Shown here: positions 4,654 to 58,046 of the stretch, piece after piece
Position numbering within the stretch: the stretch's first letter is position 1
Layout: the number at the start of each line of letters is the position of its first letter
Translations under genes and position numbers: made by a program
Notes under the pieces: generated by a model
The model's input: only the letters and a program-made list of their open reading frames with translations
Databases searched by the model: none
What the model was told of the DNA's origin: nothing
Assembly (NCBI GenBank): GCA_964574655.1
Contig: CAZNOH010000002.1
Span: 108,596 to 172,595, forward strand
Length of the DNA: 64,000 bases
Reading direction: 5' to 3'
DNA from: an uncultured Candidatus Saccharibacteria bacterium
GTDB lineage: Bacteria > Patescibacteriota > JABMPQ01 > JAQVVF01

Positions 4654-6246
4654 ATGTTAAGTAGCATTACGAAAAAAGAATGGCTCGTAGTTTCATTAAT
4701 TGCTTTAATAACAATTACTATTGTTATTGCGCCATATTTATTTGGCTATTTTACTACTCCTCAAAACATGATTTTTACTGGCGTTACTTTTGATCAGGAT
4801 TATTCCTATTTCTCCATGATGGAGCAAGCAAAAGAAGGAAAAATACTATTCAAAAATCTTTATACGTCAGAAGACCATCAGGCAATTTTTTTCAGGCCGT
4901 TGTTTTTATTTATGGGGCTATTTGCAAAATTTTTGCATCTGTCCAATTTTTTTGTTTTCCATTTATTTAAAATAATTTTTGTTGCCATTTTTATATTTTT
5001 GGCTTACAAGTTCATCTCAATCTTCTTTAGCGAAAAAATAAATCGCATAATTTGTTTGATAATTCTTCTATTTTCATCAGGTTTTGGTTTTTTAGGGCAG
5101 AGATTATTTAGTTATCTATCAACAGATCTTTGGATACCAGAATCACAGACCTTTGCTTCATTTTTCACTCAGCCTCATTTTGTTTTATCGCAAATTTTAA
5201 TTCTAGTTTGTTTTATTTGTTTATTAAAGAAAGAGCTTCGTTTTGCTCTCTTGGCAGGTCTGGCAAATTTTATTTTAGGTTTAGAGCATCCATTCGATTT
5301 GCCTGTCACGCTTTTAGTCCCATTTATTTATTTCATAATTTTATTCTTCTGGAAAAAAGAAAACAGAATTATGAATTATCTAATTTATTGCGCTATCTCA
5401 GTCGTACCAGTTATCTATCAATATTGGACAATGAAGATTGAGCCTATTGCCAAAGCCTGGAATGATCAAAACATTTTGAAATCGCCAGAAATTTTAGCCT
5501 GGATAGTCGGTTATGGCATCATCACAATCTTTGCAATTATTGGTTTCTTAAAATTTTTCAAAAATAAAAATAAAAATTTATTATTAATTAATATTTGGGC
5601 AATTGTTAATGTCTGTTTGCTATATTTGCCAGTCAATTTTCAAAGGCGAATGTCTGAAGGCTTGCATATTCCCTTGACTATTTTGGCAACTTTCGGTATT
5701 CTCATGGTTTATAATTTTTTGAATAAAAAAAGCATTAAGCACAAAATTCACACCCATATTCCAAAGATTGCTTTTTTATGGGTAATCGCTTTATCTCTGC
5801 CTTTTAGCAATATAAATCGCGTTGCTAATTATTTCAATAATTATGCTAAAGCAAAAGCATTGCCTTATTATTTCAGCCAGGACTTTTTTCAAGCTACAAA
5901 ATACTTTAACGACAATAAAATATTTGATCAAACAATTTTGGCTTCGCAAAAAAATGGTCCATTCATTTCAGGTCTGACAACAAACAGAGTTTATCTTGGA
6001 TTTGTTTTTCAGACCAAAGATTATTCTATCAAAAAAGATACTGTTGCATGGTTCTTCAAAGATAATCAGAAAATTAAACAAAAACAAGAATTTTTGCAGA
6101 AGAGAAATATCAAATATATCTTGTACGGTCCAGAAGAAAAAAAGCTTGGCAAAATTAATTTAGACAAAAAAGACTTCTTGGAAAAAGTCTATCAGAATGG
6201 TAGTTATGCTATTTACAAGATAAATGACAAAAAAACAAAAACTTAA
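4654..6246 (+). CDS. polytopic membrane protein with a C-terminal soluble domain (GT-C-like glycosyltransferase candidate)
   Basis: Many transmembrane segments followed by a hydrophilic ~150-aa tail. It lies 4 nt after the previous gene. Confidence 0.45.
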   Translation: MLSSITKKEWLVVSLIALITITIVIAPYLFGYFTTPQNMIFTGVTFDQDYSYFSMMEQAKEGKILFKNLYTSEDHQAIFFRPLFLFMGLFAKFLHLSNFFVFHLFKIIFVAIFIFLAYKFISIFFSEKINRIICLIILLFSSGFGFLGQRLFSYLSTDLWIPESQTFASFFTQPHFVLSQILILVCFICLLKKELRFALLAGLANFILGLEHPFDLPVTLLVPFIYFIILFFWKKENRIMNYLIYCAISVVPVIYQYWTMKIEPIAKAWNDQNILKSPEILAWIVGYGIITIFAIIGFLKFFKNKNKNLLLINIWAIVNVCLLYLPVNFQRRMSEGLHIPLTILATFGILMVYNFLNKKSIKHKIHTHIPKIAFLWVIALSLPFSNINRVANYFNNYAKAKALPYYFSQDFFQATKYFNDNKIFDQTILASQKNGPFISGLTTNRVYLGFVFQTKDYSIKKDTVAWFFKDNQKIKQKQEFLQKRNIKYILYGPEEKKLGKINLDKKDFLEKVYQNGSYAIYKINDKKTKT

Positions 6247-6355
6247 AAAACAAACAAAACACAAATAACAAAAAACAAACTATAATTCAAAGTTTGTTTT
6301 TTTTGTAGTTTGTAATTTGGAATTTGTTTGTTTTTTGTCTTTTTGTAATTTTATT
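6247..6355. repeat. intergenic palindromic element, acaaaca/tgtttgt word subfamily
   Basis: aaaaacaaacaaaacacaaataacaaaaaacaaact...agtttgttttttttgtagtttgtaatttggaatttgtttgttttttg. Same subfamily as 31454-31597. Confidence 0.75.
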
Positions 6356-6358
6356 TTT

Positions 6359-7945
6359 TTATTTCAGTTTATAAATTCTGCAATATTTTGAATCAAATAC
6401 TTTTTCAAATCTATCATCATCATTAAACATACTAAAAACTTTCTTATTCTTATTATTAACTAAAACATAATTAGATTTAAAGTCGTTTTTTATAGTCAAA
6501 TAAGCATCATCTTCTTCTTTTGAAATATTTTGCCATTTATTATACAAATCCAGATTATAATTATAAGTAAAAGTAGGGTCTAAGCCAAAGCCATAATAAT
6601 TTTCACTATTATTCAAAAATAATGGTGGAAAATCGCTCCAATCTAGATTCAAAATAATAGTATTTTTGGGTGTATTATTTTTAATCCAAAGAGCAGCTTT
6701 CTCTAAATCTGGCACATTTTTGGCCGAAGAATTGCCAATGCTGGCTTGTGCAGAAATCATATTGCTTACCCCAATAGAGATGATAGCAACTAAAACAAAA
6801 AGAAAAGCAAAAGACTTAAAAAATAAAAGAAAATATTGTTTTAGCCATGTTCTAATAGAATAAAAATGTTGTTTATTTTCTAAGACAATCAAAATTTGCT
6901 TAAACCATTTTTGATAATCTATTCTCTCCAATAAATCGCTCAAACAAAAAGCGCCAAAAAGTAAACAAAGAGGAACCATTAATTCAACAAATCTTTGTGA
7001 TCGCAGAGTCAAAGCAAAAAACAAAGTTGAAATAACAAAAAGAGTTATTTTAAAAGCAAATAGCTCTTTTTTTATTTTGTATTTTTTCAAAATAATATCT
7101 ATTATCAAAACAACAATTCCAGCAACATATGCGACAACTGCTAAAAAATTATTGGTCAAAAAATCCCAATCTTTGAACGGAGACCATTCTGCCCCAACTG
7201 GAATTTTTGTAAATGGCCCAGTTCCCAAAACTTGAATTTTCAAAAAAGAATAGAAATTTCTAGCATAGGGATTAGTCAAAATACTTAAAACAATTGCGCC
7301 TAAACAAATCAATATTTCTTTCCATTCAAATCTTTTTACAAAAATTAATCTAGTTAAATAAAAAATAAAAGCAAAAATAATTAAAAATATAAAACCGCCA
7401 TATAGCCAAACATAAAAGAAAGAAAACAAGGCAATCAAAAAATATTTCAGCCATTTAATTTTAAAATCATAATAAAAGCTAAACAAAATCATAATCAAAA
7501 AAAACAAAGATAAGGCAGGCACGCGGATCAAAATCATTCTAAACAAAAAAGAGCTTGAACTAAACAATAATAAAATCGCCCACCAAAAAGAAAAAGAAAT
7601 CTTATTTTTTTCTAGAATTAAATAAAAAGCCAGAACAGCTAAAGACGCAAACAGAATATCAGCAATCTTTGCGCCAATTATTGGATCTATTGCAACGAAA
7701 GGGATTAACAGAATATGAAACAAAAAATGATGATCAACGTAATGATCTTTCAAGGTAGAGAATTGCATCCACGGAAAATCTTGAAAAACAAATTTTCCGT
7801 CAATCATCATCTCCGTAATTTTGACATGATAATAAGAATCAGGACACAAAAATAATTCCAGCGAAAATTGCAGAATAGAAAAAACAGTTACAGCAATTAA
7901 GAAAACTAAAATATACTTTAAAATTTTGAAATTTCTTTGTTTCAT
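6359..7945 (-). CDS. polytopic membrane protein, ArnT/PMT-like GT-C glycosyltransferase candidate
   Basis: 12+ hydrophobic segments and a C-terminal periplasmic-type domain. Family assignment is by architecture only. Confidence 0.45.
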   Translation of the reverse strand: MKQRNFKILKYILVFLIAVTVFSILQFSLELFLCPDSYYHVKITEMMIDGKFVFQDFPWMQFSTLKDHYVDHHFLFHILLIPFVAIDPIIGAKIADILFASLAVLAFYLILEKNKISFSFWWAILLLFSSSSFLFRMILIRVPALSLFFLIMILFSFYYDFKIKWLKYFLIALFSFFYVWLYGGFIFLIIFAFIFYLTRLIFVKRFEWKEILICLGAIVLSILTNPYARNFYSFLKIQVLGTGPFTKIPVGAEWSPFKDWDFLTNNFLAVVAYVAGIVVLIIDIILKKYKIKKELFAFKITLFVISTLFFALTLRSQRFVELMVPLCLLFGAFCLSDLLERIDYQKWFKQILIVLENKQHFYSIRTWLKQYFLLFFKSFAFLFVLVAIISIGVSNMISAQASIGNSSAKNVPDLEKAALWIKNNTPKNTIILNLDWSDFPPLFLNNSENYYGFGLDPTFTYNYNLDLYNKWQNISKEEDDAYLTIKNDFKSNYVLVNNKNKKVFSMFNDDDRFEKVFDSKYCRIYKLK

Positions 7946-7963
7946 AAAATATATTCTAACATA

Positions 7964-8013
7964 AAAAAATCAACAAAAAAATCAACAAAAAAATCAACAA
8001 AAATGTTGATTTA
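7964..8013 (-). terminator. 3x 12-nt tandem repeat (aaaaaaatcaac) ending in an aaatcaac/gttgattt hairpin; terminator of the GC-rich operon
   Basis: On the minus strand it reads as stem aaatcaac-attttt-gttgattt followed by a T-rich run, with two extra gttgattttttt copies. Confidence 0.55.
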
Positions 8014-8838
8014 ACCAATGAGCCATTTTGGAGAAGAATGAAATTTTGGATCTTCGTGTTTAAAGCTAACCTCTACTGGAAATTCCTGTCCGTTGTCCCT
8101 GAAACGAAAGACAATTTTTCGGGTAAGTTCATAATAAGCTCTCAGTTTTTTATTTTCTTCTGCTCTTTCGAAGTCGTCACGAGTAACCGGTTTCTCACCA
8201 TACCATTTTGAAATAAAGCCATGAAAAACGCCGTTGGCAAGAACATCATCTACGGCAACTGTAACAACATAACTAATTTGTTGATCATTATGCAGAACTA
8301 AAGAATCAATTAATTTATCGTGCAGATAAACATCTAAAAAAATACCTTCCCACAAATGAGTTGCATCATTAAATCTATATAGTCTTAACAGTATCATCCT
8401 TACAGCGTTTTCTCCATCAACAACTCGATTAGTAATTTTTTTAATTACACGAACTTTTTCATCGAGAGCTAGACTATGTATCTTATGTCCTTTTTTTACA
8501 TCAGTACTGCCATTTTTCTTCGGATGTGCTTTCTTTTCGACAGGAATATCAAGATAAAGAGCATTATTACCTGCAAATACCCCCTTTGAATCAAAAACAA
8601 AAGCATCTGCGTGCACTCCGCAAACATCATTTGGAATAAGAATATAATCTGTTACCGCTTCTCCTGTCTCATCTGTCGTAATCGTTGTTACAATTTTACC
8701 ATCAATTTTTATAATCACATCTTTATTTACACAGGGAATGCCTTCGTCAGAAAACAGTAACACAGACAAATAGATTCTCCACTTTTCCAGTTGCGAATCC
8801 CATTCGTTTTTTAGATGTCTTAATTGTATTCGCATCAT
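8011..8838 (-). CDS. hypothetical protein, last gene of the GC-rich operon
   Basis: 275-aa ORF with clearly higher GC than its surroundings. It overlaps the upstream gene by 4 nt (ATGA). I see no recognisable motif. Confidence 0.55.
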   Translation of the reverse strand: MMRIQLRHLKNEWDSQLEKWRIYLSVLLFSDEGIPCVNKDVIIKIDGKIVTTITTDETGEAVTDYILIPNDVCGVHADAFVFDSKGVFAGNNALYLDIPVEKKAHPKKNGSTDVKKGHKIHSLALDEKVRVIKKITNRVVDGENAVRMILLRLYRFNDATHLWEGIFLDVYLHDKLIDSLVLHNDQQISYVVTVAVDDVLANGVFHGFISKWYGEKPVTRDDFERAEENKKLRAYYELTRKIVFRFRDNGQEFPVEVSFKHEDPKFHSSPKWLIG

Positions 8839-9950
8839 TGCCTCCTTTGAGCCTCTAGTTGCTCTATGGCTCGACTTACTCTTCTCGCCTCATAATCTGC
8901 TCCGGCAGAGCTTTTTTCTGCCAAGACCTTTCTTGCCAGGGTAGTCAGTAAATTATTCAAAAAACCAGACTCAATATTAGATTTAGGCAAATATTTTAAA
9001 ACACCATCAATGTTTCTTGAAATTGCTCTTTGTAACACTTCTTGTCCAAGATACAATCTTCCATGAATTAAGCAAAAAATACCAAACATTGTCATAAAAT
9101 AAATATCTTGCTGATATCTTTTTCGCAAAATAACAAAAAAATAATTAGTAATTTTGTTCGCATAAATTCCCAAATCTTTTTCAACTATCATTCTTAATAA
9201 AAATTCAGGATTTTCTGACAAAAAATCAAAGAAAGATTCAAGAATATTATGTCCTGCTAGAATTCCATAATGAAACCATTCATAAGCAGAATCTAGCGTG
9301 TATTCTTCGCGTAAAGCCTGATTAGCATAATCAACAGCTTGCTTATAATTTCCTCTAGAATATTCTATTCGTGACAAAAACAATAAAGCTTTGCTTTTAC
9401 AATCCGGAGTTTTTGCATTTGACACCGCTCTTTGAAAAGAAATATGGGCATCATCAAAAAAACCACTTTGCAAAAAACACATTGCTAGATCAATATCAAT
9501 GCAATAATCAGTTGGATTTAATTCTTGATCCAATCTAAATAGCCTTAATGCTTCTTTGACATTTCCTCGCGCAAAAGCAATTTCTCCTAGCTTCTTTTTT
9601 TGTTCAGCTGAAATCTCATCCGGTCTGCTTAAAATATCGGAAATTCTTAACAATTCAGCTATTTGTTTTTGATGTTCCAAGATCAAAGCGCTGTGCGACC
9701 AACGTAAAAATCCTTCAATGCTTTCCAGTTTTTCAATCATATCTAATTTCAATGATGCTAATTCATCTGCCAAAAGAGTTTGGTCTGGAATTTCTACCAC
9801 AATTCGTGAAGTATCGCTAGGTGAATTTGCATTTAAAGTTGCAACAATTCCTTTTTGAGAGGCAATCAGCCTTCCTGTTCTTTCGCAATTTGGGCAAGTA
9901 AAAATATTCCAGCCATCATGTGATGAACCGCAAGAAAAACAATGGGACAT
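8835..9950 (-). CDS. N-terminal zinc-ribbon (CxxC...CxxC) protein with TPR-like helical repeats
   Basis: MSHCFSCGSS...FTCPNCERTG, then repeated helical hairpins (ARGNVKEALRLF, SRGNYKQAVDYANQAL). GC elevated. Confidence 0.55.
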   Translation of the reverse strand: MSHCFSCGSSHDGWNIFTCPNCERTGRLIASQKGIVATLNANSPSDTSRIVVEIPDQTLLADELASLKLDMIEKLESIEGFLRWSHSALILEHQKQIAELLRISDILSRPDEISAEQKKKLGEIAFARGNVKEALRLFRLDQELNPTDYCIDIDLAMCFLQSGFFDDAHISFQRAVSNAKTPDCKSKALLFLSRIEYSRGNYKQAVDYANQALREEYTLDSAYEWFHYGILAGHNILESFFDFLSENPEFLLRMIVEKDLGIYANKITNYFFVILRKRYQQDIYFMTMFGIFCLIHGRLYLGQEVLQRAISRNIDGVLKYLPKSNIESGFLNNLLTTLARKVLAEKSSAGADYEARRVSRAIEQLEAQRRQ

Positions 9951-10118
9951 TTCTCCACCTCCTCTTTGGATTTGGTTGTAAAAGGACGATCAGTAATTGA
10001 CAGCGTATCATAATGGTTATTAATTATTTTGTCAACATTTACGAACGCATTTATATTCATTTTCCATAAAAAAACAGGTCAGTGACTCGCTTTCGCAAGT
10101 TTGACCTGTCAAAGAACG

Positions 10119-11039
10119 TCAATAAACAACATATTCAATGGCGAAGCCTCCGGAATTATCCTCCCACCACTCGGGATGGAAGTGATTCTCCCTGTCAGCT
10201 GTCGCCTCATTTACGGTCATAAGAATGTTGGCATCCTCGTTACCTGCATTTGCGACTTCACAGCCGTTTCCGCAGTACTGCCAAGGCCCAGGATTAACCT
10301 TGACACACAACGCTAGCCAACTTCCTCCGCATCTATACTGTCTGCCGTCTCGAAGCCAGAGCGGAGGATCAATTCCCCTTGGTCCGCTATTCAAGTCAGC
10401 CATCAAATCCCTTACCTTGCCACTTGCGCTGATCTTCATCTTCTGACCAGCCTTGAGCTTCATTGGCAAGGTAATGCCAGCGTAGTTGGGAGCTACGAAT
10501 GTAGTCTCCTCTCCAGGCTCATGCATCATCTGCTGGAACGGCGAAGGTTGAAGATTGAGACCCTTCTTTTCCAGTTCTTCTCTGCCGCCCTCTCCTTGAA
10601 CCAGTTCTGTTCCATCTTCGGAGCAGAATTTCGTGCCAAGAGAGAACTCTCTTCCGCACATTGGACAAACGGCTTTCACCGATTTCCCAGTCTTAGTATC
10701 AAAGAGTTGCCCCTTGCCCGAGGCAATGGAGACAGGCTTAATGAATGAATAGGGCAGGAAGAACTTGGAAATGCCGATCAAGCAATAGAAGCAGACCGCA
10801 ATCACCACGCCAGTCTTGATATAAGTCTGAGTGATGATCAGGTGCTTCAGAAAAAAATAGACGACGCCGAAGCAGAACAGGAACCCGATTGGTCCAGCCA
10901 GATAGCTGAACCACGAGCCCTTGCCAGTCTGCCAGTCAACAATCGCAACAATAACACGCAATACAATCAAAACCAGAATTGCTGCAACGAAGAGCAGGCC
11001 TTTAGCCTGGCTTCGTTGCTTTTTTGTCATCTTGGCCAT
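10119..11039 (-). CDS. membrane protein (3 TM) with a central zinc ribbon (CPMCGREF...CSEDG) and a Cys/Trp-rich C-terminal domain
   Basis: The N-terminus has hydrophobic helices and the middle has a CxxC-x11-CxxDG ribbon. GC elevated. Confidence 0.55.
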   Translation of the reverse strand: MAKMTKKQRSQAKGLLFVAAILVLIVLRVIVAIVDWQTGKGSWFSYLAGPIGFLFCFGVVYFFLKHLIITQTYIKTGVVIAVCFYCLIGISKFFLPYSFIKPVSIASGKGQLFDTKTGKSVKAVCPMCGREFSLGTKFCSEDGTELVQGEGGREELEKKGLNLQPSPFQQMMHEPGEETTFVAPNYAGITLPMKLKAGQKMKISASGKVRDLMADLNSGPRGIDPPLWLRDGRQYRCGGSWLALCVKVNPGPWQYCGNGCEVANAGNEDANILMTVNEATADRENHFHPEWWEDNSGGFAIEYVVY

Positions 11040-11059
11040 TTCATCCTCCCATATGTTTG

Positions 11060-11695
11060 TCAGCCTGTGATTTTATCCAGTTTATCGCAGAACCAATCCC
11101 AGCCACGCTTGAGCTTGCCAGGACCGGACTTTTTCTTGGGGCAGGGCTCTTCTTCTTCAGACTCCGACGGAGCCTGATCAGAACAGGTCGGCACCTGCTT
11201 TTCAGCTTCTGCTTCAGGCTCTGCCCCTGCCCCTGCCTTGATCTTGGCTTTCGCCGGGGTCTTGGCTCTCGGCTTTGCCTTAGACTCAGTAGGAGTCTTC
11301 TTCTTTCTGCCCTTGCCACCACCAGCCGGTGGGGTAGCAGCAGCCGCGTGAGCGGGTGCAGCAGCGGGAGCAGCCGGAGCGCGAGCAGGCGCAACAACCG
11401 GAGCCGGAGCAGCAGGAGCTACACCCGGACGAGCCGGGCGAGCTGCCACGCGCACCGGAACCGGTGCATCATCGTCGTCATCATCATCGTCGTCGTCAAT
11501 CACAACACCGCCACGCGGTGCAACGACCGGAGCCGCAACCACCAATGCATCCAAATCACCCAAATCCAAATCGCCAGCCGCAGGCTCTGGTGCATCAACG
11601 ACAGCATTACGCTTGTCGCCATTGCAAACCGGACAAATAAAACCACCTCTAAAATCAACATCTGAACCACAAATAGGGCATTGTTCACGTGCCAT
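11060..11695 (-). CDS. zinc-ribbon protein with a poly-Asp run (10 D), an Ala/Pro-rich region and a Lys-rich region; first gene of the GC-rich operon
   Basis: The start ATG at 11693-11695 is preceded by AGGAGGAG. N-terminal CPICGSDVDFRGGFICPVCNG. DDDDDDDDDD is encoded at about 11468-11497. Very GC-rich, GCC/CCG/GCG codons. The track's 11060..11875 version is over-extended. Confidence 0.6.
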   Translation of the reverse strand: MAREQCPICGSDVDFRGGFICPVCNGDKRNAVVDAPEPAAGDLDLGDLDALVVAAPVVAPRGGVVIDDDDDDDDDDAPVPVRVAARPARPGVAPAAPAPVVAPARAPAAPAAAPAHAAAATPPAGGGKGRKKKTPTESKAKPRAKTPAKAKIKAGAGAEPEAEAEKQVPTCSDQAPSESEEEEPCPKKKSGPGKLKRGWDWFCDKLDKITG

Positions 11696-11753
11696 GTTTC
11701 TCCTCCTCGTATTGTGAAGTTTCTTGCCAAATCTTGGACTTTGTAGTATAGCA

Positions 11754-11782
11754 TATGAGCATAAAAAAGTCAATGCAAAATA
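11754..11782 (-). promoter_or_regulatory. near-consensus sigma70 promoter (TTGACT-N17-TATACT) for the GC-rich operon
   Basis: The reverse complement reads ttgacttttttatgctcatatgctatact. This puts a TSS about 50 nt upstream of ATG 11695. Confidence 0.55.
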
Positions 11783-11875
11783 TGAATTAGGGCTTATTTT
11801 AGGAAAAAAAGCCTCAAAATAGCCAAAAAGACTGGATTTTATTAAAGCTTTGAAGTATACTTTGAATATATTCAA

Positions 11876-12010
11876 AATTCTAAACTCTAAATCCTAAATA
11901 AATCCAAAATTCAAATAACCAAAAATAAGAATATCGCCGAACTTTGAAAATTTGGATTTTGAGTTTTTAATTTGTTTAGAGTTTAGAATTTAGTATTTGG
12001 AGTTTTAAAA
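11876..12010. repeat. intergenic palindromic element, ctaaat/atttag word subfamily
   Basis: ttctaaactctaaatcctaaataaatccaaaattcaaataacc...gaatatcgccgaactttg...ttggattttgagtttttaatttgtttagagtttagaatttagtatttggag. Confidence 0.75.
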
Positions 12011-12014
12011 ATGT

Positions 12015-12097
12015 GCGGACGTGGTGAAATGGCAGACATGCTAGCCTTAGGAGCTAGTGGGGTAAAACCCATGAGAGTTCGAGTCTCTCCGTCCGCA
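12015..12097 (+). tRNA. tRNA-Leu (anticodon UAG), class II with a long variable arm
   Basis: Acceptor GCGGACG/CGTCCGC plus discriminator A. Anticodon arm CUAGC-CUUAGGA-GCUAG gives UAG. Variable arm ggg-gtaaaa-ccc. T arm GAGAG-TTCGAGT-CTCTC. CCA is not encoded. Confidence 0.85.
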
Positions 12098-12272
12098 AAT
12101 AAATTAACATAGAGTTTTCCGCAGAACCCTGCCTTCATGGCAGGGCGAGTCTCTTCCTCGGCAACTAATAATTCTCAAATCGAAAATTATTAATGAGTTC
12201 AAATATCAAATTATAATTATCAAAAGAGAAGCGATTAACGCTTCTTTTTCTTGCTCAATAAATTTTACGATT

Positions 12273-12917
12273 TTATCCAATTAGTTTATAAACATCTTTA
12301 AATTCAATTTTTTCAAAACTCTTGCAAATTAAGTCTGCCTTTTTTACATCATTAATATTTCCAGAAGCAAATCCAACAACTTTCATTTTTGCTTTTTTTC
12401 CTGCTTCAACTCCCAAGACCGCATCTTCAAAAACTACACATTCATTAGGTTTAACTTCTAATTCTTTAGCAGCTGTCAAAAATATTTCTGGATTTGGTTT
12501 CGGTTTTTTAAAATCATAACCAGTTATCACTTTGTCAAAGCGATCATAAATTTTTATTTTCTTTAAAATAAATTCTGTATTTTTAGAAGATGATGCAGCT
12601 GCAATTTTAATTTTTTTTCTTTTTAATTGCGTAATAAATTCTCTAAATCCTGGAAATGTTTTTGGCAAATTAGCCTCAATTGCTTCTTTAAAGAATATTT
12701 GTTTTTCTTCCATCATTTTTTTAAGTCTCTCCTTTGGAACTTTCCCCAAAATATTAGTAATCCCATCTTTTCTTGGAATGCCATTCACTTTTTTTTCGTA
12801 ATCGCGTTTAGTTAAATTTACTCCTTGTTGTTTAAAAAATTTTTTCCAAGCTAAAAAATGATGCGGAACCGTATCAGTGATAACACCATCCATGTCAAAA
12901 ATAATTGCTTTAAGCAT
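12273..12917 (-). CDS. HAD-superfamily hydrolase, beta-phosphoglucomutase-like
   Basis: MLKAIIFDMDGVITDT (DxDG motif I) and later DAVLGVEAGKKA. Native low GC. The start is taken at the internal ATG (12915-12917). Confidence 0.7.
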   Translation of the reverse strand: MLKAIIFDMDGVITDTVPHHFLAWKKFFKQQGVNLTKRDYEKKVNGIPRKDGITNILGKVPKERLKKMMEEKQIFFKEAIEANLPKTFPGFREFITQLKRKKIKIAAASSSKNTEFILKKIKIYDRFDKVITGYDFKKPKPNPEIFLTAAKELEVKPNECVVFEDAVLGVEAGKKAKMKVVGFASGNINDVKKADLICKSFEKIEFKDVYKLIG

Positions 12918-13003
12918 AAAGTTTATTAACAATTAATTAATATAAACTAACAAAATAATTAATTTTTGTCAAAGAAAAAACAGCCCAATTGAGCTGTTAT
13001 AGT

Positions 13004-14050
13004 TTAAGAGTGCTTTGCGACCAGTTTTACAATTTCTCCCCACAAAGGAACAATCAGCGAAGGAGCGAGATTTCTTCTCTGAAGAAGTACAATCTCTCTC
13101 AAAAAAGAAGCTGCCAAGTAGAAGTCAAACCTTCTTTCCCAATTTTGATCTTTACCTTGGAGGACATTCGCATTGAACTCAGTTCCAAAGCGTCTGGCTC
13201 CAAGCTGCATTTTTTTACACATTTCCTTATGTCTTACCTGATAATGAAGAGTGACAACGCCGTCGCGACGATCATACCTTGGCGTGCCATCAACCAAGCT
13301 CGTTTTTGACGAACAATATTTTCCAACACGCATTAAAGCTTCACACCAATCAATTCTTCCAGCCCATTCCAGATCAATAATCTTGACACCCCAGCGATTC
13401 CCTCTGCGTACCTTGTAGACCAAGATGTTCTCGCCTTTGAGATCACCGTGTGCCAAAACTGTCCAGGGCAGATCTTCTTCCAAAAATTTCTTCAAAATTT
13501 TAATGCAAGATTGAAGAGATGGATAAGTCTTGCCTCTTACAACAACCGGGCATTCAGTTTCGTTTCCAAAAACACTGCTCAAAGCTGCTACAGTATCTGC
13601 CATCTCCAATCTGATAATCGAATTTTCGCTTTGGCCGCCTTCTTGGACAGTTTGCGACCAGATACTATGCTTTACCTTCAAAATATTCTGATACATTTCC
13701 CAGAACTGATCCGCCGGAATTCCACGATGGTCAGGATCGAAAGCAAGTTCCTTGAATGTCGCCCGAACCTCTTTTACAAATTGGATGATAATGTAATCAT
13801 CTCCAACATGCAAAAGCTCCGGGATTTGATTACCAAAATGTGGCTTCAATAGTTTATAGCCGTGGACTTCCTTTGCAATTCTTGCCGGAGTCCCAACTTT
13901 TACAACGATTGCTCGGCGATCGCCATTGGTCTGATTTAATATGACATGGACAACCTGTGCACCAGTTACGCTGTCATGGGCCAAAGACGTTACGCTTCTT
14001 ACTTTTCTCCCAGGAAAATGATTTCTAATAGCATCATAGATTCTCTGCAT
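13004..14050 (-). CDS. APH/choline-kinase-family phosphotransferase (possibly an anomeric sugar kinase)
   Basis: Kinase-like HGDLKGENILV motif and IIDLEWAG. SD ggaggtaagg lies before the ATG. GC elevated. Confidence 0.65.
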   Translation of the reverse strand: MQRIYDAIRNHFPGRKVRSVTSLAHDSVTGAQVVHVILNQTNGDRRAIVVKVGTPARIAKEVHGYKLLKPHFGNQIPELLHVGDDYIIIQFVKEVRATFKELAFDPDHRGIPADQFWEMYQNILKVKHSIWSQTVQEGGQSENSIIRLEMADTVAALSSVFGNETECPVVVRGKTYPSLQSCIKILKKFLEEDLPWTVLAHGDLKGENILVYKVRRGNRWGVKIIDLEWAGRIDWCEALMRVGKYCSSKTSLVDGTPRYDRRDGVVTLHYQVRHKEMCKKMQLGARRFGTEFNANVLQGKDQNWERRFDFYLAASFLREIVLLQRRNLAPSLIVPLWGEIVKLVAKHS

Positions 14051-14055
14051 TTTCC

Positions 14056-15063
14056 TTACCTCCAGAGAGCGCGCATCATTTCAATCGGAACTATTTTGAT
14101 TCCACGTGCGCAAGAGAGAGGGACATCAGTGATCGTATCATGCTGAATTGCAACCATTCTGCCAAAATTACCAGCTTCCGCAAGACTCAAAGCATGTTTT
14201 GCAAATCTTCTCGCCAAAATGCGATCAAAAGCGTTTGGAAATCCACCGCGCACAGAATCAGCAAGCTGAGTCCAGCGGGTTTCAATGCCAGTTCTCTTTT
14301 GAAGAATATCAGCTAAAGTTTTTGCAACACCTCTTTCACGCAACAACTCATGATCGAATCCATCCAAAGATGTTGTTTCCTTGCATCCAGCAGGTTTTGC
14401 ATTTTCTGCGCAAACAACCAAACCAGATTCGCAATCGTGATCAATGAAATATCTGCACATAGCATCAATGTCAAGAGGGAATTCAGGCAGAACAATCCAA
14501 TCAGCGTGAGATCCAGCACCAGCATACAGAGCAACCCATCCAGCATGTCTGCCCAGAGTTTCGACAACTGCGATTCTCTGATGGGCAAAAGCCGAATCTC
14601 GAGCAGAGAGAATTGCATGGATCGAGTTATCAACAACAGACATGAATCCAATCGAGTAATCAGTTTCTGGCAAATCATTGTCCAAAGTCTTTGGAATCCC
14701 AATTACCGGCAGACCAAGATCTGACAGCTTTGAAGCAACTCCAAGAGTATCTTCACCGCCAATAGCAATCAAGACATCGAAATCACCCAAAACTACCTTA
14801 ATGGTTTCCAAACGATCTTCATTGCCAGGCTTGAATGGATCAAGTCTCGAAGTGCCCAGATAGGATAGAGTAGTAGCAGTAATTGCTACAGCTAGATTTT
14901 TGTCAGACAGATCTGCGTTATTTCCATATTCAGCAAGACCTTTCCAGCCGTTACGAAAGCCAGTCAAATTATGCTCCTGCATGAAAATTATCAGATTTGC
15001 AATCACATCGTTGATCCCTGGACAATGCCCACCGCCCGTAAGCACCGCGATCCGAAGTAACAT
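14056..15063 (-). CDS. 6-phosphofructokinase family protein
   Basis: TGGGHCPGIN, GGEDT (GGDGS-like), PKTLDND and LGRHAGW motifs. The start at MLLRIAV is preceded by aggaaggagga. GC elevated. Confidence 0.7.
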   Translation of the reverse strand: MLLRIAVLTGGGHCPGINDVIANLIIFMQEHNLTGFRNGWKGLAEYGNNADLSDKNLAVAITATTLSYLGTSRLDPFKPGNEDRLETIKVVLGDFDVLIAIGGEDTLGVASKLSDLGLPVIGIPKTLDNDLPETDYSIGFMSVVDNSIHAILSARDSAFAHQRIAVVETLGRHAGWVALYAGAGSHADWIVLPEFPLDIDAMCRYFIDHDCESGLVVCAENAKPAGCKETTSLDGFDHELLRERGVAKTLADILQKRTGIETRWTQLADSVRGGFPNAFDRILARRFAKHALSLAEAGNFGRMVAIQHDTITDVPLSCARGIKIVPIEMMRALWR

Positions 15064-15271
15064 CTTGTCCTCCTTCCTTTTTCCTCCGCGTTTCAATTAT
15101 TTTTAAGGTTCAATGCAGACAATTTTCATATACTATCATATAGGTATATATAATTATAAACGAGTACCCAACCATGCGTCAATATCATGGTGTGGATAAT
15201 TATTCAAAAACAAAAAAAGCCCAAATCCAGGCTTTTACTTTACAAACTTTAAAAACATTATAACTTTAGAA

Positions 15272-16105
15272 CTACGCCCATTCTTTCAAAACTCTTTCAT
15301 AAATTTCTGGCGTGCTGATGTCATACCAATCTCCATCAAAATGATAACCATGCAAATTTCCTTCAGCAGCTAATTTTGGCAACACATCTTCTTCAAGTTT
15401 TGAGTATTCTTTTTTCGGTATCAATTTAATAATCTTTGGATCTATAACAAACACTCCAGCTGAAATTAATCTTGAAAGGTTTGGTTTTTTTTCTGGTTTT
15501 TCCAAAAATCCTAATATTTTACTGCCACGAAGTTTCACTACTCCATAACCTTCAGGATTCGGAACTGAAGTCAAAGCAACTGTTGCCAATCCGCCTTCTT
15601 CCTTATGGAATAAAAGCATATCTTTCAAATCAACTCTTGCCAATGTATCGCCATATAGCATCAAAAATGACTCGTCAGTTAAATATTTTTTAGCTTTTAA
15701 TAATGCTTTCGCAGTTCCGATTTTTTTCTTGCACATTACATAAGTAATTGATACGCCGAATCTTTTGCCGTCGCCAAAATATTTTTTAATTTTTTCAGCC
15801 ATATGGCCAACCAAAATAATAATGTCTTTAATGTCATTATCTCTCAATTGCTCAATGATATGTTGTAGAATTGGCTTACCTTTTACCGGCAACATTGATT
15901 TTGGCATTTCATAAGTAAAAGGACGCATCTTGATTCCTTGTCCAGCTGCAAGAATATAGGCTTTTTTGACTCTTGATCTTAAGCTTTTCAAAATCAAATA
16001 CTCAATCGCGTGGGAGCGGTTTCTTATTTTTTCACCATCAATAACCTTGTCAATTTGTGGCAAAATATCTTTGCGAAGTGTAATTGTTAATCTTGATCTT
16101 TCCAT
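15272..16105 (-). CDS. NDP-sugar pyrophosphorylase (RmlA/GlmU-N-like nucleotidyltransferase) with an N-terminal ribbon-helix-helix domain
   Basis: Residues 1-45, TITLRKDILPQIDKVIDGEKIRNRSHAIEYLILKSL, are RHH-like. The NTase domain then starts KAYILAAGQGIKMRPFTYEMPKSMLPVKGKPIL. Confidence 0.65.
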   Translation of the reverse strand: MERSRLTITLRKDILPQIDKVIDGEKIRNRSHAIEYLILKSLRSRVKKAYILAAGQGIKMRPFTYEMPKSMLPVKGKPILQHIIEQLRDNDIKDIIILVGHMAEKIKKYFGDGKRFGVSITYVMCKKKIGTAKALLKAKKYLTDESFLMLYGDTLARVDLKDMLLFHKEEGGLATVALTSVPNPEGYGVVKLRGSKILGFLEKPEKKPNLSRLISAGVFVIDPKIIKLIPKKEYSKLEEDVLPKLAAEGNLHGYHFDGDWYDISTPEIYERVLKEWA

Positions 16106-16120
16106 ATCATTATTTTATGT

Positions 16121-16143
16121 AGTGAACAAACAATGTTTGTTCA
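16121..16143. promoter_or_regulatory. perfect 11-1-11 palindrome gtgaacaaaca-a-tgtttgttcac, 15 nt upstream of the RHH-NTase start; candidate operator
   Basis: Read directly. It sits in the divergent promoter region between 16105 (-) and 16264 (+). Confidence 0.45.
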
Positions 16144-16263
16144 CAATTATTTTCCGTTGTTTTATACCTTAAATTATACTATCATATAAATAGTTCAACT
16201 TCAATATTTTATGACATTTAAAAATTTTGGATTGCAAAATTTTAAAAAAAATAATAAAAAAGT

Positions 16264-17271
16264 ATGATAAATATCGATAAATCAAATTTTAAAGACGTTG
16301 TTAAAAATTATCCAAAACAATTTGCCAAAGCTTTAAATTTTGCCAAGGATGTCGAAATCAGCGGCGAATTCAGTAATGTTATAGTTTGCGGTATGGGCGG
16401 ATCTGCATTGCCAGCTGATATGGTAATTTCATATCTCAAATCAAAAAATATTAATTTTCCAATCACAGTTTGCCGAAATTATACCTTGCCAGTCGAGGCA
16501 AATGAAAAAAGCTTGATTATTGCTTCATCTTTTTCAGGGTCAACAGAAGAAACAATCTCTTGTCTCAATGAAGCAATAGCTAAAAATTACAAAGTTATTG
16601 GCTTAGCTCGCGGTAAAGACATTTTAGAAATCTGCCAGTCAAAAAATATTCCATATATTCAATATCCAGATGACGGTCCGACATTCCAGCCTCGCTGTGC
16701 TTCCGGTTATATCTTTACATCAATTTTAACAATTTTAAAAAAAATAGGAGTATTAGAAAACATCGAAAACGATTTAATTTCTCTTGGCGAATTTTTAGAC
16801 AGCATAAATTCAGAGCAAGAAATAGCTGGCCAAGAATTAGCCTTAAAAGTCAAAGGAAATGTTCCGCTAGTTTATACAACTGAATTTTATCGAGATTCTG
16901 TAGCCCGCATTTTCAAAATTAAATTTAACGAAAATGCCAAGACTCAAAGTTTCTTTAACTATTTTCCTGAATTGAATCATAATGAAATGGTTGGCTTTAC
17001 CAATTTAGTCGGCAAATATTTCATTATAGTTATGCAAGACGAGGCAGATCATGAAAGAAACAAAAAAAGAATGAATATTTTTAAAGGCCTTCTAGAACAA
17101 AAAGGAATTAGCGTAGAAATTATTATGATGAAAGGAAATTCTGTTTTAGAAAAAATATTTGCAACGTCTCTTTTAGCTGATTGGACATCATATTATTTAG
17201 CTTTAGCTTATAATCTTGATCCAACTCCAGTTGATATGGTTGAAGAATTCAAAGATTCAATGAAAAAATAA
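16264..17271 (+). CDS. bifunctional phosphoglucose/phosphomannose isomerase (archaeal-type SIS-domain PGI/PMI)
   Basis: VCGMGGSALPADMV and IASSFSGSTEET SIS motifs. About 335 aa. Confidence 0.7.
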   Translation: MINIDKSNFKDVVKNYPKQFAKALNFAKDVEISGEFSNVIVCGMGGSALPADMVISYLKSKNINFPITVCRNYTLPVEANEKSLIIASSFSGSTEETISCLNEAIAKNYKVIGLARGKDILEICQSKNIPYIQYPDDGPTFQPRCASGYIFTSILTILKKIGVLENIENDLISLGEFLDSINSEQEIAGQELALKVKGNVPLVYTTEFYRDSVARIFKIKFNENAKTQSFFNYFPELNHNEMVGFTNLVGKYFIIVMQDEADHERNKKRMNIFKGLLEQKGISVEIIMMKGNSVLEKIFATSLLADWTSYYLALAYNLDPTPVDMVEEFKDSMKK

Positions 17272-30334: not shown

Positions 30335-31453
30335 ATGTTTATGTATTTATCTTCTCTACAACTTCAAAACTTTAGAAATTATAAAGATTTTGCTAGTAGT
30401 TTCATCAATGGCCTAATTATTTTGACTGGCCCAAATGCTTCCGGAAAAACCAACCTGCTAGAAGCAGTCCAGCTTTTATCTTTATCAAAGTCATTTCGTG
30501 TCAGAAGTGAATATGATTTAGTTTTGTTTGGTATGGATTTTGCAAAAATTTTAGGCACTGTTCAAAAAAATAGCCAGCAAATAAAATTAGATATTACAAT
30601 TGATTCTCTTACATCTAAAAATCAAAAAACAATAAAAATAGATGGTCTTAAAAGTCGCGCTTTTGATTTGATCGGTGAGTTAGTTACAGTTCTTTTTTCT
30701 CCAGAAGATCTCAATTTAATCAATTCTACACCATCACTTCGTCGGCGTTATCTAGATGTTGTTATCTGTCAAATTGATAAAGATTACTGCCGTAATTTAG
30801 CAGAATACAAGAAAGTATTAATAAACCGCAATCAACTTTTACTGAACATTAAAAATGGCTATTCTACTAAGCAAGAGCTCAGTTTTTGGAATGAAAAACT
30901 AATTGATTTAGGTTCAAAAATCATTGCAAAACGCCAGCAAGCTTTAAAATTTTTAAATTCCAGATTGTCGGAAATTTATAATGACATTTGTGCAACCAAA
31001 GATCAAAAACTTCGGATTATTTACAAACCAAACCTACCATTGATTCAAGATTCTGATATTAAAGCATTGTTCGAACAAGAGCTAAATAATAAATACGAAC
31101 GTGAAATTTATAAAACCTATACTTTAGTCGGTCCGCATCGCGATAATTTTGTTTTTGAACTTAATAAAAAAAGACTCGCTGTTTTTGGCTCGCGAGGAGA
31201 ATATCGAAGTTCAATCTTAGCTTTAAAATCAGCTGAGTTAGATTTTATTGAAAAAAGTTTAGGCGAACGCCCAATACTTTTGCTTGATGATGTTTTTTCC
31301 GAATTAGATGAAAAACGCCGAAATCATATGTTTGAATTAGTTAGACGCCAGCAAACATTCATTACCACAGCTGATTTTGTTGGACTTGAAGTTGGATTTG
31401 TCAGAGAAGCACAAGTGCTACAGATTAAGGAAGGTGAAATCACTAATAAATAA
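30335..31453 (+). CDS. recF: DNA replication and repair protein RecF
   Basis: LQLQNFRNY, Walker A GPNASGKTNLLEAV, and C-terminal LLLDDVFSELD. Confidence 0.85.
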   Translation: MFMYLSSLQLQNFRNYKDFASSFINGLIILTGPNASGKTNLLEAVQLLSLSKSFRVRSEYDLVLFGMDFAKILGTVQKNSQQIKLDITIDSLTSKNQKTIKIDGLKSRAFDLIGELVTVLFSPEDLNLINSTPSLRRRYLDVVICQIDKDYCRNLAEYKKVLINRNQLLLNIKNGYSTKQELSFWNEKLIDLGSKIIAKRQQALKFLNSRLSEIYNDICATKDQKLRIIYKPNLPLIQDSDIKALFEQELNNKYEREIYKTYTLVGPHRDNFVFELNKKRLAVFGSRGEYRSSILALKSAELDFIEKSLGERPILLLDDVFSELDEKRRNHMFELVRRQQTFITTADFVGLEVGFVREAQVLQIKEGEITNK

Positions 31454-31597
31454 AAAACAAAAACACAAAAATGCAAAAAACAAACAAATCCCAAAATACA
31501 AAAAACAAAACACAAATCTTTTCTTTCGTTTTTGTAATTTGGGTTTTGTGATTTGTAATTTATTTGTTTTTTGTCTTTTTGTTTTTTTAGCAAAATT
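31454..31597. repeat. intergenic palindromic element, acaaaca/tgtttgt subfamily
   Basis: aaaaacaaaaacacaaaaatgcaaaaaacaaacaaatcccaaaatacaaaaaacaaaacacaaatc...tttttgtaatttgggttttgtgatttgtaatttatttgttttttg. Confidence 0.75.
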
Positions 31598-31897
31598 ATG
31601 TCAATCTTTTCTCTCAAAGATCTTCTGCCCTTATCAATTAATAGAGCAGGCATTGGAACTCAGCTTGAGGCATCTCAGGTTTGTTTAACTTGCGAAAAAT
31701 TAATTAAAGAATTAGATCAAAAAATTTTTCAAGAAATAAAACCAGTCAGTTTCAAAAACAAAACTTTAACAATCCAAGTTCCGTCATCTTCCCACGCCCA
31801 AGAATTATTAATGCATCAACATATCATCAAACAAAAAATCAACCAGCATTTTAAGAAACAGCTGGTTGATCGTATAAGTTATAAAATTAATTTCTAA
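31598..31897 (+). CDS. DUF721-family protein (recF-associated)
   Basis: Immediately downstream of recF. About 100 aa with the LTCEKL...KTLTIQVPSSSHAQEL pattern typical of DUF721. Confidence 0.55.
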   Translation: MSIFSLKDLLPLSINRAGIGTQLEASQVCLTCEKLIKELDQKIFQEIKPVSFKNKTLTIQVPSSSHAQELLMHQHIIKQKINQHFKKQLVDRISYKINF

Positions 31898-58020: not shown

Positions 58021-58046
58021 AAACAGACATATTTTACAAGGAAAGC

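Follow-up and report, generated by a model that had tools for sequence, protein, structure and literature searches.

How does a genome that is otherwise rich in AT come to carry genes whose codon composition runs opposite to its own, and what do such genes encode? The question is raised by a 64,000-nt stretch of DNA from an uncultured Candidatus Saccharibacteria bacterium (contig CAZNOH010000002.1 of assembly GCA_964574655.1, positions 108,596 to 172,595; hereafter the window), in which four minus-strand genes, numbered here 1 to 4 in the direction of transcription, lie beside a tRNA-Leu gene. A preliminary description had read them as one GC-rich operon of zinc-ribbon proteins, acquired from a high-GC donor and domesticated under a native promoter. 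We arrive at a different explanation, which we consider the best one and hold with moderate confidence as a whole: genes 1 and 2 would form a strain-variable surface lectin cassette whose alleles are exchanged by recombination, and genes 3 and 4 a separate insertion. This explanation is carried by composition, by the signals of two transcription units, by synteny, by the pattern of divergence and by the fold of one encoded domain; it further involves a predicted membrane topology, a probable lectin activity, a putative interaction between the products of genes 1 and 2, and recombination and gene conversion as the likely sources of the diversity and of the GC content, respectively. The genes concerned are listed here with their GC content and their GC content at third codon positions (GC3):

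12014-12098, plus strand: tRNA-Leu (anticodon TAG; ARAGORN, Rfam 55.6 bits), with the GC-rich pair on its 5' side
11060-11695, minus strand: gene 1, 211 aa, with ribbon, run of ten Asp, low complexity and C-terminal motif; GC 58% (0.582), GC3 0.453
10119-11039, minus strand: gene 2, 306 aa; GC 49.5% (0.495), GC3 0.56 (0.560)
8835-9950, minus strand: gene 3, 371 aa, with N-terminal 4-Cys ribbon, helical region and TPR repeats at about residues 111-229; GC 34% (0.341), GC3 0.23 (0.226)
8011-8838, minus strand: gene 4, 275 aa, an ORFan whose start overlaps the gene 3 stop (ATGA); GC 35% (0.349), GC3 0.24 (0.236)

The four open reading frames (ORFs) and the adjoining tRNA gene lie where they had been placed, and the GC of 60-65% previously estimated for parts of the block is matched by a 300-nt sliding profile, which runs at 46-65% over about 10050-11700, peaks at 62-65% at 11100-11550 and drops to 27% at 11700-12000, against a mean of 33.5% for the window. 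The elevation is nevertheless a property of genes 1 and 2 only: relative to the 35 other ORFs of the window (GC 0.337±0.030, GC3 0.256±0.028) these two are the compositional outliers, whereas genes 3 and 4, also described as GC-rich, fall inside the background. The deviation of gene 2 is chiefly synonymous, its codon choice being inverted relative to the background (AAG for 77% of Lys vs 18%, TTC for 83% of Phe vs 23%, CAG for 67% of Gln vs 19% and TTA for 0% of Leu vs 43%), and its transmembrane segment reaches a GC3 of 0.72-0.76 despite a GC content of only 0.28-0.34 at the first two codon positions. The excess GC of gene 1 comes largely from Ala, Pro, Gly and Asp codons (0.72 at first positions), and its GC3 is native over the first 25 codons (0.16) and 0.36-0.64 thereafter. 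As expected of GC-rich sequence, which has few stop codons, antisense ORFs overlie both genes: one of 213 aa on the plus strand (11024-11665) spans nearly all of gene 1, and several of 70-110 aa lie inside gene 2.

Related loci place this pair in a conserved setting. The kinase-like gene beyond the tRNA belongs to a 90%-identity cluster that includes 'Patescibacteria group bacterium' proteins (MDD3888043.1, GCA_028699085.1) and JGI metagenome proteins, and the contigs of its members are collinear with the window in the order PGI, nucleotidyltransferase, phosphofructokinase (PFK), kinase-like gene, HAD hydrolase gene, tRNA-Leu, two genes and a 528-aa membrane protein, followed downstream by a ~530-aa membrane protein, DUF2079 and type IV secretion system (T4SS)-pilin genes. 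In these relatives the slot between tRNA-Leu and the 528-aa membrane-protein gene is taken up by homologues of genes 1 and 2. A full HMMER scan of 1.84 billion cluster representatives supplied further loci, and a JGI metagenome scan added one. No related locus recovered lacks genes 1 and 2 at this site, and the pair occupies the same slot in at least six related Patescibacteria loci, being GC-rich in most. The pairs of L003, L004, L006 and L008 have 56-59% and 48-50% GC among neighbours of 26-28% GC, and the gene 2 homologue of L003, L006 and L008 is 42-43% identical to that of the window over its full length; the other loci, with values for the pair given as gene 1/gene 2, compare as follows:

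L010: gene 2 identity 50-52%; GC 58%/53%, GC3 0.56/0.58; followed directly by the 528-aa orthologue
L013/L014: gene 2 identity 29%; GC 57%/48.5%, GC3 0.64/0.585; followed by a gene 3 orthologue
L016: gene 2 identity 42%; GC 56%/47%, GC3 0.39/0.44; followed by the 528-aa orthologue
L012: gene 2 identity 29%; GC 42.5%/37%, GC3 0.33/0.24; followed by a 503-aa orthologue
L011: gene 2 identity 28-31%; GC 37%/39%, GC3 0.26/0.39; contig ends after the pair

The family is rare. The full HMMER scan found only five other full-length relatives of gene 2, each of them, as far as its neighbours could be recovered, in a context of Patescibacteria type, and among GTDB species representatives the full-length family occurs in one genome only, at a locus already recovered. 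A word-indexed protein search for gene 2 returned the query alone, missing 42-52% identical orthologues that share exact pentapeptides with it and occur in JGI, Logan and NCBI assemblies; a verdict of 'ORFan' from that search would be wrong, since synteny and HMMER reveal these orthologues.

Transcription signals divide the four genes:

11745-11773, minus strand: promoter of the GC-rich pair, TTGACT, 17 nt and a TG-extended TATACT (10 of 12 positions in a consensus scan)
11700-11708, minus strand: Shine-Dalgarno sequence GAGGAGGAG, 4 nt 5' of the gene 1 ATG (sequence reading)
10066-10110, minus strand: intrinsic terminator of the pair, a two-tier hairpin GACAGGTCA..CTTGCGAAAGCGAG..TGACCTGT followed by T7
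10007-10035, minus strand: promoter of genes 3-4, TTGACA, 17 nt and TATGAT (11 of 12, the best match in 7800-12400)
7964-8013, minus strand: AT-rich hairpin and probable terminator, three tandem TGTTGATTTTTTT units with T-runs after gene 4

These signals indicate two transcription units, genes 1-2 and genes 3-4, rather than the single four-gene operon proposed earlier, because a terminator stands after gene 2 and gene 3 is preceded by a promoter of its own. The hairpin that follows the gene 2 stop folds at -23.3 kcal/mol (z -4.6, with no shuffle as good), ends in a T-run and is kept in all the loci reaching it (L003, L006, L008, L010, L013 and L014). The promoter of the pair had been recognized as native-looking, although it had been assigned to 11754-11782 and truly lies at 11773-11745; it is also conserved, with -35 TTGAC and -10 TAT.CT invariant in six related loci (alignment A6). 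The strong Shine-Dalgarno sequence reported after it is indeed there, and a purine-rich equivalent is kept in relatives, the combination of a near-consensus extended -10 promoter with a strong Shine-Dalgarno sequence suggesting that the pair is strongly expressed. The promoter of genes 3-4 has a counterpart in L013/L014, in which the -35 TTGACA and its surroundings are kept and the -10 reads TATATT vs TATGAT in the window. Finally, the reiterated terminator noted 3' of gene 4 corresponds to an AT-rich hairpin of -11.1 kcal/mol (z -3.6).

What the pair encodes is best approached from gene 2, in which three regions can be distinguished:

10755-10997, minus strand: three transmembrane helices (family alignment A1)
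10602-10676, minus strand: degenerate Cys knuckle, CPMC-x10-C-x2-D
10122-10514, minus strand: C-terminal PA-IL/LecA-like beta-sandwich of ~130 residues

The product is a membrane protein with three hydrophobic helices, as had been proposed. Lys/Arg residues are found on the N-terminus (+2 to +11) and in loop 2 (+2 to +3, with at most one acidic residue) in 9 of 9 family members, loop 1 and the stretch after the third helix being neutral or acidic, and the predicted topology places the N-terminus inside and the C-terminus outside. The knuckle (C125-x2-C128...C139-x2-D142) has three Cys, of which only C125 and C139 are invariant, C128 being absent from L003, L006 and L008; zinc ribbons had been ascribed to three of the four proteins, and they are indeed present in gene 1 (CPIC-x11-CPVC) and gene 3 (CFSC-x12-CPNC) but not here, where a disulfide appears likelier than a zinc site, the segment being predicted to be extracytoplasmic. 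Further along the chain Cys 237, 245, 256 and 260 of the C-terminal domain are kept in 8 of 9 members, and conserved Cys in even number, in a domain that is exported, again suggest disulfides.

Structure prediction with AlphaFold2 gave gene 2 a predicted local distance difference test score of 79 overall and of 84-96 over residues 180-306 when supplied with a 13-sequence alignment (43 without one). LecA, EclA and PllA account for the top eleven Foldseek matches in the PDB (E 7e-8 to 1e-5, target TM-score 0.67-0.81), LecA being matched at E 7e-8, a target TM-score of 0.78-0.81 and a root-mean-square deviation of 2.6-2.9 Å. The family profile A2 finds the same lectins over their whole length, namely PllA (5odu, E 4e-8), EclA (6ygq) and LecA (1l7l, E 2e-5), and the full-length relative P0014 scores 30.8 bits with Pfam PF07828 (gathering threshold 22.5; E 3e-7). 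The C-terminal domain as modelled has the LecA-type beta-sandwich fold. Asp100, Asn107 and Asn108, the side-chain calcium ligands of LecA, align in HMMER with E278 (Asp in most relatives), D294 and N295 of gene 2; PllA also has D...DN at these positions and the replacements in the window protein are conservative, the alignment holding a ~9-residue insertion nearby. In addition, domain-only relatives consisting of an N-terminal signal anchor and a LecA-like domain exist, one of them on a 284-kb contig with T4SS-pilin genes, and point to an extracytoplasmic role of this domain. On the model, gene 2 would be a new, membrane-anchored architectural variant of a known lectin fold; in the literature on Patescibacteria and the Candidate Phyla Radiation we found nothing specific on lectins, PA-IL or hypervariable loci.

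Gene 1 is of a different kind, and its recognizable parts are few:

11624-11680, minus strand: N-terminal 4-Cys zinc ribbon, CPIC-x11-CPVC
11468-11497, minus strand: run of exactly ten Asp (residues 67-76)
11063-11110, minus strand: conserved C-terminal GW(D)WF-x-DKLDK motif

The ribbon consists, by direct reading, of two CxxC knuckles at zinc-ribbon spacing (C6-x2-C9...C21-x2-C24), and the ten-Asp run remarked on previously was read at residues 67-76; the Ala/Pro-rich and Lys-rich low-complexity regions are likewise present. The C-terminal motif is GWDWFCDKLDK in the window and IAWFHRLCDWAEDLF, GWFHKIGDALDK or GWFSKIDDALEDLF elsewhere. The homologues at the syntenic loci L003, L004, L006 and L008 start with MAREKCPICDSDVDF, have poly-Asp and Ala/Pro tracts and are 57-65% identical over the N-terminal ~170 aa, that of L016 is 78% identical over the first 51 aa, and more divergent, modular ones occur in L010, L012, L011 and L014. 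The family as a whole is modular: an N-terminal 4-Cys ribbon with an acidic tract is optional, the low-complexity sequence is rich either in Ala/Pro or in Ala/Glu/Lys, a beta-rich domain of ~90 residues is likewise optional and is lacking in the window protein, and the short C-terminal motif is conserved. Searches of Pfam, NCBIfam, PHROG, PADLOC and the PDB gave no family match to gene 1, the Pfam-type hits being sub-threshold zinc-ribbon or low-complexity models, and a PDB search with the whole family returned low-complexity noise only. As the protein has neither a signal peptide nor a transmembrane helix, we infer a cytoplasmic or peripheral partner that docks via its C-terminal helix.

Comparison among the related loci reveals how unusually this pair evolves. 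Relative to L003, L006 and L008 the flanking proteins are 84-95% identical and gene 2 is 42-43% identical, and across relatives the identity of gene 2 drops to 29-52% beside flanking proteins at 72-95%. Between L006 and L008 the flanking HAD and kinase-like genes show a synonymous divergence (dS) of 0.008 and 0.031, against a dS of 0.33 and a non-synonymous divergence (dN) of 0.077 for gene 2, and a dS of 0.22 and dN of 0.063 for gene 1; both measures are raised at least ten-fold, and dN/dS is 0.2-0.3. Raised dS and dN together with overall purifying selection point to replacement by diverged alleles or to a locally higher mutation rate, and do not point to simple positive selection. Allele relationships are also incongruent with the flanks: L010, whose 528-aa gene is the most distant among the syntenic loci except L012 (72%), has the closest gene 2 (50-52%), and L013 combines a gene 3 that is 78% identical with a gene 2 of just 29%. 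DNA identity is flank-like (74-80%) from the promoter into gene 1 (11838-11315), then collapses and resumes at the terminator, and an exchanged block bounded by conserved ends is what would be expected of homologous replacement. Finally, synonymous sites between allele classes are saturated (proportion of synonymous differences 0.75-0.80), so that the signature of a donor could not have survived passively.

These data support a model in which genes 1 and 2 reside as a two-gene cassette in a small clade of Patescibacteria, always in the slot between tRNA-Leu and the 528-aa membrane-protein gene and equipped with its own conserved strong promoter and terminator. Gene 2 would be anchored by its three transmembrane helices with the N-terminus inside, displaying the knuckle and the lectin-like domain of LecA fold outside, and gene 1 would be a modular, largely disordered partner whose C-terminal GWF..D..L helix probably docks to the membrane or to gene 2. 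Strains would swap the coding block by homologous recombination between the conserved 5' end (promoter and first ~50-125 codons of gene 1) and the terminator, and this swapping would maintain very old allele classes, a pattern expected for a surface recognition molecule under diversifying or frequency-dependent selection, for example one used in attachment to host or partner-cell glycans or one targeted by phages.

The GC content of the cassette can be examined in the same comparison. Third-position changes were polarised by majority rule with the three close relatives L003, L006 and L008. Gene 2 shows 34 GC>AT and 38 AT>GC changes, implying an equilibrium GC3 of 0.53 (observed 0.50), and gene 1 shows 19 and 31, respectively (implied 0.53, observed 0.41); the corresponding values are 0.15 (observed 0.17) for the HAD gene and 0.35 (observed 0.38) for the kinase-like gene. 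With the divergent trio L003/L006/L016 the implied and observed values are 0.45 and 0.48 for gene 2 and 0.40 and 0.41 for gene 1, and gene 2 departs from the pooled process of the native flanks (P=0.005). This suggests that the composition of the cassette lies near a stable, locus-specific equilibrium and is not ameliorating. In bacteria, evidence of intragenic recombination correlates positively with the GC and GC3 of genes, independently of codon-usage selection (Lassalle et al. 2015, PMC4450053). The high GC3 of the cassette, apparently stable and specific to the locus, would travel with the hypervariable block, and we favour GC-biased gene conversion at a recombination hot spot as its cause.

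Several observations weigh against this explanation. The polarisation tests rest on 70-110 changes, and the divergent trio is subject to parsimony error, one native flank having an implied GC3 of 0.40 against 0.23 observed; if the differences are recombinational, moreover, what the polarisation describes is not the mutation process but the allele pool, which is GC-rich. In either case the composition does not call for a recent high-GC donor. At the promoter and past the stop codon there is a sharp drop in GC, where gene conversion should raise the adjacent non-coding GC too, and the shift in GC3 from 0.25 to 0.5-0.64 is far above the sizes typically reported. The distant L012 and L011 cassettes have native or near-native GC3, and GC enrichment is thus not intrinsic to the cassette. 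As to function, lectin activity follows from the modelled fold and a partial conservation of ligands: gene 2 of the window, taken by itself, gives no PF07828 (PA-IL) match at E<=0.1, and the loop corresponding to His50 and Gln53, the galactose-specifying residues of LecA, is variable in the family and not confidently alignable. Nor is it evident how gene 1, lacking signal peptide and transmembrane helix, relates to an outward-facing lectin.

Because the effect is so large, its non-coding boundaries so abrupt and the L012 and L011 cassettes so native-like, selection on the transcript or its codons stays a serious rival to gene conversion as the force that keeps a resident hypervariable cassette GC-rich, although we think it unlikely. 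Candidate selective causes are mRNA stability against AU-directed RNases, the kinetics of membrane-protein translation, and, for an operon that is highly expressed, the need to keep out AT-rich motifs acting in regulation or termination; the enrichment is sharply bounded by the coding block, as such selection would have it, promoter and Shine-Dalgarno sequence suggest high expression, the window encodes RNase Y, and the composition lies close to equilibrium. On the same mRNA, however, gene 1 keeps a native GC3 over its first 25 codons, the L012 and L011 cassettes are native or nearly so in GC3, and the G-ending codons AAG, GAG, CAG and CTG rise equally with the C-ending ones, a general push towards GC rather than a tRNA-matched preference; the housekeeping genes for IF-2 and RNase Y in the window, for their part, have a native GC3 of 0.24-0.25. 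Translational selection for C-ending codons was rejected on the last two grounds.

A second, milder GC-elevated block, on which the preliminary description was silent and which per-ORF statistics and sliding GC brought to light, lies at 13004-15096, across tRNA-Leu and the natively composed HAD hydrolase gene from the cassette. It comprises the 348-aa kinase-like gene, whose product has weak EcKL, choline-kinase and TCAD9 matches, and the PFK gene (GC 0.43-0.45, GC3 0.35-0.40), and it is kept in relatives at 83-90% identity and in the same order. In L016 the GC3 of PFK is near-native (0.28) and that of the kinase is still raised (0.34); the polarised changes suggest that the kinase-like gene has an equilibrium GC3 of its own, of ~0.35.

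Genes 3 and 4 remain to be placed relative to the cassette. They make up the following block:

7966-10061, minus strand: inserted block with genes 3 and 4, of native composition, bounded by breaks in DNA homology

Homology of the window DNA to L006, L008 and L010 ends at ~10062, past the gene 2 terminator, and resumes at ~7965-7976, just upstream of the 528-aa gene. The block is absent at this point from L003/L004, L006, L008, L010, L012 and L016, and L013/L014 carry at least gene 3 there, the L013 contig ending directly after gene 3 and before any gene 4 position. Exactly at this point L003 and L004 have a gene for an IS200/IS605-type Y1 transposase (156 aa; L003 14030-14836, L004 10710-11519) bracketed by three copies of the hairpin GGCGAGAAATCGATTTCTCGCC, which marks the DNA just after the cassette terminator as an insertion hot spot. 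Gene 3 couples a ribbon of zinc-ribbon spacing (C4-x2-C7...C19-x2-C22) to TPR repeats, as had been described, the latter matching Pfam TPR_2 (E 5.8e-10, 39 bits, threshold 27), TPR_12 (E 1.7e-8, 35 bits, threshold 30.1) and consensus TPR proteins in the PDB (E 2e-15 over residues 111-229). Its sole homologue among 5.8 billion proteins is P0160 of L013/L014 (77.6% identity), where terminator, promoter, leader and Shine-Dalgarno sequence between the pair and gene 3 are ~87% identical to those of the window. Gene 4 has no match in Pfam, NCBIfam, PHROG, PADLOC or the PDB, a protein search returned only gene 4 itself, and scans of viral contigs found no relatives. We read genes 3 and 4 as a lineage-restricted insertion of native composition that is not part of the GC-rich entity; in the proposed mechanism they would be an unrelated pair with a promoter of its own, inserted just after the cassette terminator.

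It has also to be considered whether all four genes, despite their separate promoters, make up one module, a membrane-associated zinc-ribbon and TPR system for defence or signalling. Gene 3 recurs right downstream of a very different allele of genes 1-2 in L013/L014, and Cys-knuckle motifs occur in three of the proteins. Yet seven loci (L003, L004, L006, L008, L010, L012 and L016) have the pair without genes 3 and 4, and in two of these, L003 and L004, the slot holds the IS200-like element. Genes 3 and 4 are near-ORFans, which precludes co-occurrence statistics, and a search of PADLOC-DB with the four proteins matched gene 3 only, with a generic TPR model (E 5e-4) and weakly with PbeC (E 0.014), and none of genes 1, 2 and 4. 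We consider a single module improbable. Of the roles suggested earlier for the locus, host interaction fits an extracytoplasmic LecA-like domain, and defence or toxin functions found no support in PADLOC-type scans.

The explanation put forward originally, a recent transfer of the four genes as one operon from a high-GC donor, such as an actinobacterial host, to a site beside tRNA-Leu and under a native promoter, now seems very unlikely. It had in its favour that genes 1 and 2 are strong outliers in GC and codon usage, that the Ala/Pro-rich low complexity of gene 1 has a high-GC flavour and that a tRNA gene is adjacent. Genes 3 and 4, however, are native in composition and belong to a separate transcription unit, and homologues of the GC-rich genes are confined to close relatives and to one syntenic slot, with promoter and terminator conserved, which is the outcome that the preliminary description itself had named as refuting a transfer; the full-length relatives found by the full HMMER scan are the five already described. 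Third-position changes are balanced and not dominated by GC>AT, and an ancient transfer into the ancestor of the clade, though conceivable, would not explain a GC3 that persists after synonymous saturation. There is, furthermore, no integrase in any ORF of 4654-16105, as had been noted, nor any att repeat, and it is the 5' side of the tRNA that the pair adjoins.

Of two other readings, integration at a tRNA att site was rejected and a phage origin finds little support. A tRNA-integrated island finds neither an integrase domain in the ORFs of 4654-16105 nor an empty site, as the pair is present at the same place in every related locus, and insertion at a tRNA att site is at odds with the 23-nt 3' and 5' ends of the tRNA each occurring once in the window at <=3 mismatches, and with the block facing the 5' end. 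The same tRNA-Leu is found in L003, L006 and L008, and an Rfam scan of 7000-16500 found nothing besides it; its adjacency looks irrelevant to the pair. As to a phage origin, neither tblastn with gene 2 as query on phage genomes nor any of three scans of viral contigs gave a match.

Many Patescibacteria have diversity-generating retroelements, whose targets are often C-terminal domains of lectin fold, and targeted hypermutation by such an element, or something similar, might both diversify a lectin-like gene and skew its composition, in keeping with the raised dS and dN of gene 2. We give this even less credence than a transfer: the 64-kb window contains no template/variable repeat of any part of genes 1 and 2, no reverse transcriptase domain was found among its ORFs scanned, the divergence extends over all of gene 2 and the greater part of gene 1, transmembrane helices included, rather than a C-terminal region of ~100 bp, and the fold is LecA-like, not that of a C-type lectin.

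An assembly artefact, that is, a contaminating high-GC contig joined into an AT-rich scaffold, may be dismissed, for despite the abrupt change in GC and two Logan contigs that end at the edges of the GC-rich block (10349 and 11875), contig L001 passes without a mismatch out of native genes and covers 231 bp of the GC-rich gene 2, and independent JGI, NCBI, ENA and Logan assemblies share the AT-rich/GC-rich/AT-rich layout with homologous promoter and terminator. The chimerism that the preliminary description had itself named as a danger is excluded by that shared layout together with Logan contigs 100% identical to the window on both flanks (L001 from SRR13723397 over 7057-10349, L002 from SRR13723393 over 11875-17197), coverage by these independent contigs leaving a gap at 10350-11874. 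Within-sample allele polymorphism, low-complexity GAC/GCN repeats or coverage bias are possible reasons for contigs stopping at the block edges. No Logan gene call matches gene 1 or gene 2 exactly.

Elsewhere in the window, long AT-rich intergenic palindromes are dispersed, each with two 55-70-nt arms of AAATTCTA/AAATCCTA-type units that enclose a short centre. Between tRNA-Leu and the gene 1 promoter there is one copy, at 11856-12008; the others are at the following positions:

473-613, 2323-2396, 31885-32022, 34936-35084, 36065-36197 and 36954-37092: AT-rich palindrome copies
42361-42494, 53277-53457, 53888-54376, 55177-55239, 57077-57210 and 61419-61556: AT-rich palindrome copies

A second palindrome family is built of ACGAAT/ATTCGT units (2861-2998, 32430-32556 and 57887-58022) and a third has A/C-rich vs G/T-rich arms (6215-6359 and 31445-31589); these intergenic palindromes could be bidirectional terminators or elements resembling repetitive extragenic palindromes or miniature inverted-repeat transposable elements. 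Four paralogous ORFs of 134-252 aa stand in tandem at 614-2803; they have a 214-nt repeat in common (60-70% identity) and occupy the position that T4SS_pilin-family genes have in relatives. Together with a TraG/VirB4-like ATPase at 55245-57080 and an SLT/T4SS-pilin protein at 61559-63208, they suggest a type IV secretion-like surface apparatus.

To our knowledge, how ultra-small Patescibacteria recognise or attach to partner cells is largely unknown, and a strongly promoted, membrane-anchored LecA-like lectin that varies sharply between near-identical strains would be a concrete candidate for a specificity determinant. The locus also warns that equating deviant GC with recent transfer can be wrong, as its composition, opposite to that of the genome, is seemingly stable and coincides with a recombining block, and it could serve well as a natural case in which to study how recombination enriches GC in bacteria. 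A bolder version, which we put forward tentatively and regard as rather doubtful, is that the cassette is a strain-specific determinant of host recognition or phage evasion in these episymbiotic Patescibacteria, whose alleles are swapped at a dedicated hot spot that itself drives a local, self-sustaining GC enrichment; if true, strong GC-biased gene conversion, or some unknown process targeted to the locus, could be seen here in a bacterium with unusual clarity. If none of these proposals holds, it is still a tidy, small locus for a variable surface protein beside an insertion hot spot.

Set against known systems, the locus shares with the pattern described in PMC4450053 that the block of high GC3 coincides with the recombining block and that the conserved 5' end of gene 1 keeps a native GC3. 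It departs from that pattern in the size of the GC3 shift of the cassette, ~+0.25 to +0.38 and far over genome-wide averages, and in its abrupt stop at non-coding boundaries.

With Pseudomonas aeruginosa LecA, Photorhabdus PllA and the N-terminal domain of Enterobacter EclA (PF07828), gene 2 as modelled shares the same small beta-sandwich in its C-terminal ~130 residues, and the motif ND...DNSGxF, which carries the calcium ligands in LecA and PllA, has its counterpart in NE...DNSGGF of the window protein. LecA and PllA, however, are free soluble lectins of ~121 aa, whereas in gene 2 a membrane anchor of three helices and a Cys knuckle precede the domain in one chain; unlike LecA, the domain has four additional Cys that are conserved and, ahead of the DNSG motif, an insertion of ~9 residues, and it lacks a conserved equivalent of the sugar-specifying His50/Gln53 loop.

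Like islands and integrative elements linked to tRNA genes, the locus adjoins a tRNA gene, deviates in composition and contains ORFans; unlike them, it has neither an integrase nor an att repeat of the tRNA, its deviant genes are the conserved ones, and the variable genes 3 and 4 are native.

A further parallel is with pilin, porin, O-antigen and capsule loci, at which divergent allele classes are exchanged by flanking homologous recombination in many bacteria. As at those surface loci, conserved flanks and regulatory ends enclose a very divergent coding block, alleles are incongruent with the flanks, and dS and dN are both raised between near-identical strains with dN/dS <1. Unlike them, the cassette offers a block of only ~1.5 kb and two genes, in the ultra-small genome of a member of the Patescibacteria, with a codon composition opposite to that of the genome.

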